Assembly: GCF_000027125.1 (NCBI RefSeq) | Contig: NC_017626.1 | Reading direction: 5' to 3' (one strand) | Source of the DNA: Escherichia coli 042 | Lineage (GTDB): Bacteria; Pseudomonadota; Gammaproteobacteria; Enterobacterales; Enterobacteriaceae | Length of the DNA: 64,000 bases | Part shown: positions 7,230 to 33,609 of the stretch, piece by piece | Layout: every line of letters begins with the position of its first letter | How positions within the stretch are numbered: position 1 is the stretch's first letter | Translations under genes and position numbers: made by a program | Notes under the pieces: generated by a model | Seen by the model: the letters and a program-made list of their open reading frames with translations, nothing else | Databases searched by the model: none | What the model was told of the DNA's origin: nothing

Positions 7230-7268
7230 CACGCTACCGCCCCTGGCTTAACAGCTACCAGTGCACTA
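7230..7268 (-). promoter_or_regulatory. JUMPstart element with ops (GGCGGTAGCGTG), RfaH-dependent antitermination site in the O-antigen operon leader
   Basis: Minus-strand sequence TAGTGCACTGGTAGCTGTTAAGCCAGGGGCGGTAGCGTG matches the 39-bp JUMPstart consensus and ends with the ops element. Confidence 0.85.
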
Positions 7269-30227: not shown

Positions 30228-31367
30228 TTACCAGTTATGAATGTCGCTGGCTGTATCCGTCATGTAACGGACACCGCTAATAGTTGGCAGCAACTGATTG
30301 ATCAGACGGTTCCAGCGGGAAACCGGTGCGGTGGTGACATACACCACGTCATAAGGTTGCAGGCGGAATTCTGTCGCCATCACCAGCGACGTCGCATCGG
30401 ACATATCCAGCTGATAGATATTGGCAATCTTGCCGTTACGCCCGCCCTCGCCTTTCAGCGGACGAATGACAAAGATGCCGCTGGCGTTGGAGGTGGTCAT
30501 GTCGATGCCTTCAGCATTGCCCAGGGCTTCAGTCAGGGTCATACCGCTAAAGTCCATTTTCAGGGTGCTCTGTTTCTTCACTTCACCCATCACAAACACT
30601 TTCAGATCATCATTACGCGGCACGTAGAGAATATCGCCAGGATAAAGCAGTCGGTTCTGATTGAGGTCGCCGTTTTGCATCAGCGCCTGCAAAGAAATGC
30701 GTTCTTCACGACCATTGTGTGTTAGCACCACGTTGCGCCAGTCAGCGGTGTCGGTCAGGCCACCTGCGGCGTTGATGGCGTCGAGAATGGTCAGTGGTAC
30801 GTTGGTGATCGCCTGTTGACCGGATTTATTCACCTGACCGGAGATATACGCTTTTTGCGAGCGGAAGGCGGCGATATTAACGTCCACCTGCGGGTCAGCG
30901 ATGTACGTCGCTAAGCGCCCGGTAATATCACTGCGGATTTCAGCGAGCGTTTTCCCCACCACGTGAACTTTGCCGATATACGGGTAGAACATGGTGCCGT
31001 CAGGCTGTACCCAGTTGCCGGTGTCGCTGGAGCTGCGGTACTGACCGGCTGGCGTGGTGAGCTCCGGGTGATCCCAGACGGTGACATTAAGAACGTCCCC
31101 CGGCCCGACGCGATACTGGTAATTCGCGATCTCACTTTCCAGCGTCATATTGGGGCGCGCTACGTTGGGTCGTGGACGTAATTGGTCAATCAGGCGCGGG
31201 GTCAACGGATAAACATTCACCATTTTGTCGAGATCGAAATCAGCGTCCTGCTGTTTGATGACGTCTTTGCCCATCGTCGACATATTGCTGCCCGGAAGTA
31301 CTGTGCAACCGCTTATCAAGGTTACTGACACCAATAATGGCATCAATTTCATTTTGGATTTCATCAT
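30228..31367 (-). CDS. wza: outer-membrane polysaccharide export lipoprotein Wza
   Basis: 379 aa; lipoprotein signal ending ...LISGCT. Confidence 0.9.
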
Positions 31368-31545
31368 TGTTTATTTATCACTTTGGCAGAGTAATTATCC
31401 TGTGCACTATTAATAGCAATGTCGCCATGCACATTTACCTTGCAGTTAATTGAATAAAAATTTAACTGGCATCAGTCCTAAAAAAATTGATTTCATCCGC
31501 AGGCTATTGACAGAATAATTCAGACTGGTCTTTCAGGCATCCAGA

Positions 31546-31584
31546 CACGCTACCGCCCCTGGCTTTTTAGCTACCAATACACTG
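31546..31584 (-). promoter_or_regulatory. JUMPstart element with ops (GGCGGTAGCGTG) in the wza leader
   Basis: Minus-strand sequence CAGTGTATTGGTAGCTAAAAAGCCAGGGGCGGTAGCGTG; shares the ...AGCCAGGGGCGGTAGCGTG core with the element at 7230-7268. Confidence 0.85.
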
Positions 31585-31769
31585 ATTTAGCTTAATTTTT
31601 AAAACCCTCTCAACATACAGTCGTTGATGAGAAAGGGTTATTGCGGAAATTAACTTCCGAATATAAGGTGACATTATGGTAATTGAATATTGGCTCTCCA
31701 ATAATGCAGGAGGAAGTGTTACAGCTAACGGAATAGCAGGCAAGGTAACAATTCGGCAATTGGCTATTT

Positions 31770-31785
31770 TTAAGAATTATATTAA
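31770..31785 (-). promoter_or_regulatory. candidate RcsAB-box-like site upstream of wza
   Basis: TAAGAATTATATTAAG partly resembles the RcsAB box consensus TaAGaatatTCctA; the match is weak and the position is not verified. Confidence 0.25.
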
Positions 31786-32025
31786 GTGTCATTCAATATG
31801 GTTTTTAGGAGTTTCTTTAGGTTGACAATATTTAATATAGTGTCTCCACATGCGATATTTCTTAAATAATGTTTTATTATTACCACTTTTAATTCAGGGA
31901 TAATGTGAGGTTATAAACCTCAAATAATATGAGATAAATAGTGCTGCAACATTGCATTTTTGCCCCGATTTATCCATGATCGAATTGTGACATTTGTCAT
32001 ACAACGAATAGGTTTTGTACTTACT

Positions 32026-33609
32026 ATGGAATGGATTGCCGATCCGTCTATCTGGGCCGGGTTAATCACGCTGATTGTGATCGAACTGGTCCTCGGCATT
32101 GATAACCTGGTCTTTATTGCCATCCTCGCCGAAAAACTACCGCCGAAGCAGCGCGACCGCGCACGGGTTACCGGGCTGCTGCTGGCGATGTTAATGCGCC
32201 TGTTACTGCTGGCGTCAATCTCCTGGCTGGTCACCCTGACTCAACCGCTGTTCAGCTTCCGCTCGTTTACCTTTAGCGCCCGCGACTTAATCATGCTGTT
32301 TGGTGGTTTCTTCCTGTTGTTCAAAGCCACGATGGAGCTTAACGAACGGCTGGAAGGGAAAGACAGCAATAACCCCACGCAACGCAAAGGTGCGAAGTTC
32401 TGGGGGGTGGTGACACAAATTGTGGTACTGGACGCCATCTTCTCACTCGACTCAGTGATTACCGCCGTCGGGATGGTCGACCATTTACTGGTCATGATGG
32501 CCGCCGTGGTTATCGCTATCAGCCTGATGTTGATGGCCAGCAAGCCGTTAACCCAGTTCGTTAACAGTCACCCGACCATCGTTATTCTCTGCTTAAGCTT
32601 CCTGTTGATGATTGGCTTTAGCCTGGTGGCGGAAGGTTTCGGCTTCGTCATTCCGAAAGGCTACCTGTACGCTGCCATTGGTTTCTCGGTGATGATCGAG
32701 GCGCTCAATCAGTTGGCTATCTTTAACCGGCGACGTTTTCTTTCCGCTAACCAGACGCTGCGCCAGCGGACTACCGAAGCGGTAATGCGCCTGCTTAGCG
32801 GGCAAAAAGAAGATGCGGAACTGGACGCCGAAACCGCGTCCATGCTGGTGGATCATGGTAACCAGCAGATCTTTAATCCGCAGGAACGGCGGATGATTGA
32901 GCGGGTACTTAATCTTAACCAGCGTACTGTCAGCAGCATTATGACGTCGCGCCACGATATTGAGCATATCGATCTCAACGCGCCGGAAGAAGAAATCCGC
33001 CAGTTGCTGGAGCGAAATCAGCATACGCGGCTGGTGGTTACTGATGGCGATGACGCAGAAGATTTGCTCGGTGTTGTTCACGTTATCGACCTGCTACAAC
33101 AGTCTCTGCGCGGCGAACCGCTCAACCTGCGGGTGTTGATTCGCCAGCCGCTGGTGTTCCCGGAAACCTTGCCGTTGTTACCTGCCCTGGAGCAGTTCCG
33201 TAATGCTCGCACACACTTTGCTTTTGTGGTGGATGAGTTTGGTTCAGTGGAAGGGATTGTGACATTAAGTGACGTCACTGAAACCATTGCCGGTAACTTA
33301 CCGAACGAAGTGGAAGAGATCGACGCCCGCCATGATATTCAGAAGAATGCGGACGGTTCCTGGACGGCGAATGGTCATATGCCACTGGAAGATCTGGTGC
33401 AATATGTGCCGCTACCGCTGGATGAGAAACGCGAATATCACACCATTGCCGGGCTGCTGATGGAATATTTGCAGCGTATTCCAAAACCTGGCGAAGAAGT
33501 TCAGGTGGGGGATTATTTGCTTAAAACGTTGCAGGTGGAAAGCCATCGCGTGCAGAAGGTGCAGATTATACCGCTGCGTAAGGATGGCGAGATGGAGTAC
33601 GAGGTGTGA
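32026..33609 (+). CDS. yegH: inner-membrane TerC-family protein with CBS/CorC domains (UPF0053)
   Basis: Start trimmed to [13 protein letters not shown] (ATG at 32026), 527 aa; N-terminal membrane domain followed by a soluble C-terminal region. Confidence 0.85.

Follow-up and report, generated by a model that had tools for sequence, protein, structure and literature searches.

Positions 31,368 to 32,025 of the window, by which we mean the whole 64,000-nucleotide stretch of Escherichia coli 042 DNA that was analysed, very probably hold the well-studied control region of the colanic-acid operon (cps/wca) and, at their far end, a small promoter that serves yegH separately. The system was known already, and extra conserved boxes add a minor new detail to it. 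What is new is comparative only, and points to two further conserved box-like elements beside the published RcsAB box of wza, a candidate RcsB box facing yegH that varies between lineages, and a leader conserved in sequence. The kind of element is unchanged by this material.

The wza-yegH spacer and its counterparts in other species

According to the ORF list and the RefSeq annotation of a strain with 100% identity, wza spans 30228-31367 (-) and the ATG of yegH is at 32026 (+); the yegH product is a TerC/CBS-domain membrane protein. An earlier note on this DNA, made from the sequence alone, had described some 650 bp of AT-rich DNA between the two genes as a control region upstream of wza, and both the extent and the assignment hold: the spacer measures 658 bp with a GC content of 34.3%, compared with 50.3% for the whole window and 53% in wza and yegH (Table 1).

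Bases 31300-32100 are 100% identical to the corresponding sequence of E. coli strain 2014C-3075. The spacer region was found in 4838 of 5426 complete E. coli genomes, mostly at 95-100% identity and always between wza and yegH. The remaining 588 genomes gave no spacer match, and in a few (for example H25) the yegH-proximal 70 bp are all that is left. The pattern fits a replacement of the colanic-acid locus, for instance by group 1 capsule loci. The K-12 sequence shows 98.6% identity and an equal spacer length, and MG1655 (NC_000913.3) coordinates are obtained by adding 2,105,876 to those of the window.

For comparison across genera we scanned one genome per species with YegH. Among the resulting 80 loci, wza is divergently adjacent in 67, which together with the window gave 68 spacers. 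These cover Escherichia, Citrobacter, Salmonella, Enterobacter, Lelliottia, Leclercia, Kosakonia, Kluyvera, Trabulsiella, Yokenella, Siccibacter, Buttiauxella and others, and in the 67 species the spacer is mostly 630-790 bp long. A MAFFT alignment resolved sharp conserved blocks, namely three box-like sites (C, B and A), a promoter block, the JUMPstart, most of the leader downstream of it and the yegH-proximal 80 bp, separated by stretches in which identity drops to 0-40%. The identity, coordinates, conservation and fixed spacing of these elements are direct observations on the sequences.

Table 1. Features of the wza-yegH spacer, in window coordinates; positions with a sign are relative to the predicted wza start site.
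Feature	Positions	Strand	Basis and remarks
wza-yegH intergenic spacer	31368-32025		658 bp, 34.3% GC; ORF list, RefSeq annotation, composition
wza 5' leader, ~340 nt (predicted)	31368-31707	-	distance from the predicted +1 to the ATG
Sequence-conserved leader downstream of JUMPstart	31368-31545	-	79% mean column identity in 36 genera-level sequences
ops, RfaH loading site, GGCGGTAGCGTG	31546-31557	-	exact 12-nt match; 190 nt before the wza ATG
JUMPstart	31546-31584	-	Rfam RF01707, 57.3 bits, E=3.6e-12; ~+124 to +162
Predicted wza core promoter	31715-31743	-	near-invariant block across genera; -35 TTGCCT 31743..31738, -10 31720..31715
Site A (box of the earlier note)	31771-31784	-	10/14 to consensus; 9.2 and 8.9 bits; ~-77 to -64
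Site B (published E. coli wza RcsAB box), TAAAGAAACTCCTA	31806-31819	-	identical to the wza entry of Table S1 (PMC4381331); ~-112 to -99
Site C (distal Rcs-box-like), TAAGAAATATCGCA	31851-31864	-	10.2 bits (+), 8.8 bits (-); ~-157 to -144
Site D (apparent decayed RcsB-type box remnant), TGAGATAAATAGTG	31930-31943	+	-2.1 bits in E. coli; 8 bp upstream of the yegH -35
Predicted yegH promoter	31952-31980	+	conserved hexamers; -35 TTGCAT 31952-31957, -10 CATGAT 31975-31980
Conserved palindrome, TGTGACATTTGTCATA (TGTGACAATTGTCAT in other genera)	31986-32001	+	alignment; between the yegH -10 and the ATG

A full-length JUMPstart with an exact ops site precedes wza

The JUMPstart placed in this interval by the earlier note was confirmed: the RF01707 match spans the full length of the model (1-38) and scores well above the gathering score of 35, and it includes an exact 12-nt ops. 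The ops core GGCGGTAG is on the non-template strand, runs in the same direction as wza and follows the conserved promoter block. The chance expectation for the 12-nt ops is a mean of 0.01 matches per shuffled window. An Rfam search of the region at a permissive E-value returned, besides the JUMPstart, one mir-320 match that we regard as meaningless, merely the marker of a hairpin. A terminator scan of the region found none.

In strain CFT073 an identical ops, at the same -190 distance and on the non-template strand of the wza leader, carries an RfaH ChIP signal in a delta-hns delta-stpA background, and the wza promoter is bound and silenced by H-NS/StpA (PMC9765446). The region shares with the JUMPstart/ops-RfaH leaders of rfaQ, rfb/wzx, hlyC and kps a full JUMPstart, an exact non-template ops, a long leader and a long polysaccharide operon. 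It differs from them in that the wild-type wza operon is silent at initiation, so that RfaH comes into play only once Rcs is activated or H-NS is lost (PMC9765446).

A second exact copy of the 12-nt ops lies at 7230-7241 (-) of the window and presumably belongs to the JUMPstart of the O-antigen (rfb) cluster, which follows the colanic-acid genes.

A near-invariant block marks the probable wza promoter

Upstream of the JUMPstart the block CCTTGCCTG..TTAGCTG(C/T)AACA(A/C)TTC is near-invariant across genera, and the DNA downstream of it is variable. The block contains TTGCCT, a 17-bp spacer and an extended -10 consisting of TGT and AACACT (AACAAT in most genera). Its hexamers match the sigma-70 consensus at 4/6 and 3/6 positions and are accompanied by a TGn motif; because only 7/12 sigma-70 positions match, a promoter scan was silent at 31715-31743. 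The cores of sites A and B stand at a distance from this -10 that is constant within 1 bp in nearly all 68 spacers. From the conserved hexamers only, we infer a wza start site at ~31707 (+-2). This position agrees with the start that Stout reportedly mapped in 1996 roughly 340 bp upstream of the first gene.

The scan match TGGAGA-16-CATAAT at 31700..31673 (-) is the sole site above the scan threshold (9/12), but it is very improbable as the wza promoter: one match is fewer than the shuffle mean of 3.6, the stretch has a mean identity of 34% across genera (the 22nd percentile of the spacer), and it is the block 25-50 bp upstream that is near-invariant.

RefSeq places a 49-aa hypothetical protein, WP_162829205.1, at 31676-31825 (+), antisense to the wza promoter and to boxes A and B, and it is annotated in many E. 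coli genomes; in K-12 the frame is interrupted by a stop, only 4/68 spacers have it intact, and we consider it almost certainly a spurious gene call. A reporter fragment described as the wza promoter in PMC11112850 (primers AAAAGCCAGGGGCGGTAGCG and TGTTTATTTATCACTTTGGCAG) corresponds to ~31369-31566, extending from inside the JUMPstart to just before the ATG. On the map derived here this fragment is leader only, lacking the conserved promoter and any Rcs box.

The published RcsAB box lies between two further box-like elements

Activation of cps by RcsA-RcsB proceeds through an RcsAB box (PMC5829831, PMC5651002, PMC2478693). The E. coli wza box is listed as TAAAGAAACTCCTA (Fang et al. 2015, PMC4381331, Table S1), a 14-mer present unchanged in the window as site B. 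In the portion of that supplement available to us, the references include Wehland & Bernhard 2000 and Stout 1996, none of them tied to the wza row. The earlier note had tentatively proposed a box at 31770-31785 (TTAAGAATTATATTAA) and had warned that the real RcsAB site might lie elsewhere in the interval. A box is indeed present, and the warning was well placed: read in the wza direction, the published site precedes the proposed position by 35 bp.

We built a log-odds matrix from the 16 other distinct boxes of PMC4381331 Table S1, leaving wza out. With this matrix, sites C, A and B scored 10.2, 9.2 and 8.1 bits, compared with 10.8-19.0 bits for the training sites. A matrix scan, proposed in the earlier note as a check on its box, thus places 31771-31784 below all 16 training sites, though the site is conserved and fixed in position across genera. 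The spacer contains five matrix matches of at least 6 bits, against 0.59 expected under a Markov null (P=0.002). The weak scores of the individual sites combined with this excess point to a cluster of weak boxes and not to one strong box. Across species, the top aligned positions for the matrix were C, with a median of 11.1 bits, and B, A and the yegH-proximal site D, with 10.5 bits each; the next position reached 3.5 bits. The strict RcsB-homodimer pattern TN(G/A)GAN4TC(T/C)NA (Huesa et al. 2021) had no match anywhere in the E. coli spacer.

In the wza sense the sequence of site A is TAATATAATTCTTA (+ strand: TAAGAATTATATTA), with AAAAA directly after it, and the site matches the consensus TaAGaatatTCctA at 10/14 positions on both strands, including 5/6 of the capital positions. 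The window holds 36 consensus matches of at least 10/14, so the consensus match alone decides nothing; site A stands above chance because of its conservation and its fixed position across genera. In the 68 spacers it is conserved as CTTAATATTA(A/T)TCTTAAAA, with the core TC(T/C)TAAA at -67/-68 in every one (68/68) and a mean identity of 0.87, the 89th percentile of the spacer. Across genera the consensus is TAATATTAATCTTA-AAAA, at a promoter distance constant within 1 bp. On the wza-sense strand the G of the "TAAG" half is missing in most genera (TAATATTAATCTTA), so that only one half-site, TCTTA-AAAA, is box-like in these. Site A is thus a real, strongly constrained box-like element, separate from the published box.

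Site B, which also matches the consensus at 10/14 positions, is conserved in the cross-genus alignment as TGTCAATATAAAGAAAATCCTAAAA. The core TCCTAAA falls between -100 and -103 in every one of the 68 spacers (at -102/-103 in 62), and an invariant TGTCAA(C/T) adjoins the site directly upstream (31820-31826). Site C matches the RcsAB consensus at 9/14 positions, the six capital ones all among them, and departs from the RcsB box TN(G/A)GAN4TC(T/C)NA at a single base. It is conserved as TTTAGGA(A/T)ATATCGCA, and the tight pattern occurs at -155..-158 in 42/68 spacers.

Any role of sites A and C, like the exact start sites, we infer from these comparisons. It is quite possible that A and C are auxiliary RcsAB or RcsB sites, so that several dimers, with the one on the published box, would assemble on a fixed scaffold so as to displace H-NS and make contact with RNA polymerase. 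Sites A, B and C are the top three wza-side matrix positions in ~60 species, and a direct repeat, AATC(C/T)TAAAA, is common to A and B, its copies a constant 34-36 bp apart. The K-12 rcsA box likewise ends in TCCGAAAAA, and the rcsA promoter has been reported with two boxes (PMC11879457). Against this reading, each site is weak or a half-site, and the spacings of 35 bp and 45 bp do not correspond to whole helical turns. In addition, the K-12 rcsA upstream region gave only one matrix match, which leaves a general multi-box rule unsupported.

A and/or C might instead be kept for another factor or for DNA shape (A-tract curvature, a UP-like contact or H-NS nucleation) and not be Rcs sites at all, a possibility that we entertain tentatively. 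The conserved blocks exceed the 14-mers (CTTAATATTAATCTTAAAA; the invariant TGTCAAT adjoining B), the similarity to the box is partial, and H-NS/StpA bind the region in CFT073 (PMC9765446). Set against these points is the likeness to an Rcs half-site at three positions, which is the sole matrix signal in the spacer.

Finally, 31770-31785 is improbable as the functional wza RcsAB box itself. In its favour are the 10/14 match with a perfect TAAGAAT half on the + strand, a leave-wza-out score slightly exceeding that of the published box (9.2 versus 8.1 bits), and extreme conservation at a fixed distance from the promoter; but the 14-mer given for wza in the literature is a different one, at 31806-31819, only one half-site of A is box-like in most genera, and mutation of the wza box defined by Wehland and Bernhard in 2000 reportedly abolished capsule production.

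The wza leader is conserved in primary sequence

Downstream of the JUMPstart the leader retains the blocks ATTATTCTGTCAATAGCCTGCGGATGAA, TTTTTTAGGACTGATGCCAGTTA, ATTAACTGCA and GCACAGGATAATTACTCTGCCAAAGTGATAAATAA.CAATG, and the length from the JUMPstart to the ATG is constant at 234-245 nt. RNAalifold on the 36 leader sequences gave a covariation term of -0.11 kcal/mol with one compensatory pair, and so supported no structured RNA in this set. An 8-codon upstream ORF (ATG at 31476, MPVKFLFN) was considered and rejected, its ATG being replaced by ATA or ATT in 5/36 sequences while the surrounding block is still conserved. The lack of covariation and the loss of the upstream ATG together indicate that the leader is conserved at the level of primary sequence. 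This strong conservation is not explained by the Rcs/RfaH model set out below. A TAGGA half-box is found within the block TTTTTTAGGACTGATGCCAGTTA, and the leader also has another TGTCAATA motif, which resembles the one adjoining the RcsAB box.

Further upstream, the E. coli leader contains a terminator-like hairpin, CCCUUUCUC..GAGAGGG followed by a U-run (UUUUAAAA), at 31605-31645 (-), that is at ~+71 and upstream of ops. As a conserved attenuator the hairpin (31605-31637) was rejected: its fold z-score is -2.1, and a comparable hairpin with a U-run was found in 18/65 species. Three other Escherichia genomes lack it, its occurrence being limited to some lineages of E. coli. Near +60, a different hairpin (UAUCNNCCG...) is found in several Enterobacter species.

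No Shine-Dalgarno sequence occurs in the last 10 nt of the leader, ahead of the wza ATG. RfaH can replace a Shine-Dalgarno by recruiting the ribosome, and the wza start fits that idea.

A separate promoter and a lineage-variable box face yegH

The earlier note had treated the spacer as one divergent control region. It is the control region of wza, but the degree of sharing was overstated, since the conserved elements of the two genes are separate. Those of wza occupy 31368-31870 and the conserved yegH promoter ~31930-32001, with ~60 bp of unconserved AT-rich DNA between them, and the predicted wza and yegH start sites are ~280 bp apart.

Both hexamers of the yegH promoter are conserved around an unconserved 17-bp spacer, which would place the yegH start site at ~31987. 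Nine Klebsiella/Raoultella-type loci without an adjacent wza still keep both hexamers, indicating that the promoter is yegH's own. The palindrome that follows it lies 25 nt before the ATG and has CRP-like half-sites (TGTGA-N6-TCATA); its position suggests an operator-like site.

Site D scores at least 8 bits in 32/58 species, and in 31 of these 32 it is separated from the yegH -35 by a gap of 8 bp; relative to the wza start its position ranges from -234 to -256. An intact example, TAAGAGAAATCTCA, fits TN(G/A)GAN4TC(T/C)NA, and a strict match occurs in ~20 other species (perfect sites at our loci L020, L021, L025-L027, L029, L043, L046-L049, L051, L054, L055, L059, L061 and L064). The E. coli copy has lost its right half, and the Salmonella arizonae copy is also decayed. 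Both site D and the palindrome are absent from the Klebsiella/Raoultella-type loci without an adjacent wza.

In Enterobacter, Lelliottia, Trabulsiella and others, site D conforms to the pattern of RcsB-homodimer promoters of the rprA and osmC type, and its placement just upstream of the -35, at 8 bp, is that described for RcsB-only targets; E. coli site D departs from this class in lacking the right half (-2.1 bits). Site D would appear to be a point of yegH activation by RcsB, present only where yegH neighbours the capsule operon, and yegH may be an unrecognised Rcs target in the genera with an intact site D. A limited literature search turned up no description of yegH as a target of Rcs.

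Proposed mechanism and relation to known promoters

The following scheme takes RcsAB dependence, RfaH loading and H-NS silencing from the literature. A weak sigma-70 promoter (TTGCCT-17-TGT-AACACT, +1 at ~31707) in AT-rich DNA would be held silent by H-NS/StpA. Phosphorylated RcsB, aided by RcsA, would bind TAAAGAAACTCCTA at ~-112..-99 and turn the promoter on, and the conserved box-like elements at ~-77..-64 and ~-157..-144 may assist. Transcription would then cross the leader of ~340 nt, where RNA polymerase is expected to pause at ops and load RfaH. RfaH would suppress termination and H-NS roadblocks over the ~20 kb operon, and probably also aids ribosome recruitment to wza. On the other side, yegH would be read from its own compact promoter at 31952-31980, with the palindromic operator-like site beyond it.

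The closest known system is the E. coli K-12 cps (wza) promoter with its RcsAB box (Stout 1996; Wehland & Bernhard 2000). The locus is the same, the box at 31806-31819 is unchanged and nothing essential differs; sites A and C are added here and have no entry in the box table of PMC4381331. The rcsA promoter, which is autoregulated through RcsAB and silenced by H-NS, shares an RcsAB box placed far upstream, with an A-tract after it, in AT-rich DNA bound by H-NS. The rcsA box is strong (13.8 bits), whereas the wza boxes are weak (8-10 bits) but several.

With some reserve, the comparisons can be joined in one proposal: the wza promoter may use a fixed scaffold of three Rcs-type elements in place of a single RcsAB box, and yegH may at the same time be an unrecognised RcsB target in many genera by way of the perfect box 8 bp from its -35, the link having been lost in E. 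coli and Salmonella. If this is true, the scaffold elements at ~-70, -105 and -150 would be kept to the base pair across the Enterobacteriaceae.

For annotation, the gain consists of exact coordinates for the published RcsAB box, for the ops/JUMPstart and for the likely core promoter, and of the removal of a spurious 49-aa call. The extra boxes and the yegH-facing RcsB box would be modest, testable refinements and not a new kind of element. The region itself sets when enterobacteria produce their colanic-acid capsule, and cps::lacZ is the standard read-out of Rcs envelope stress.
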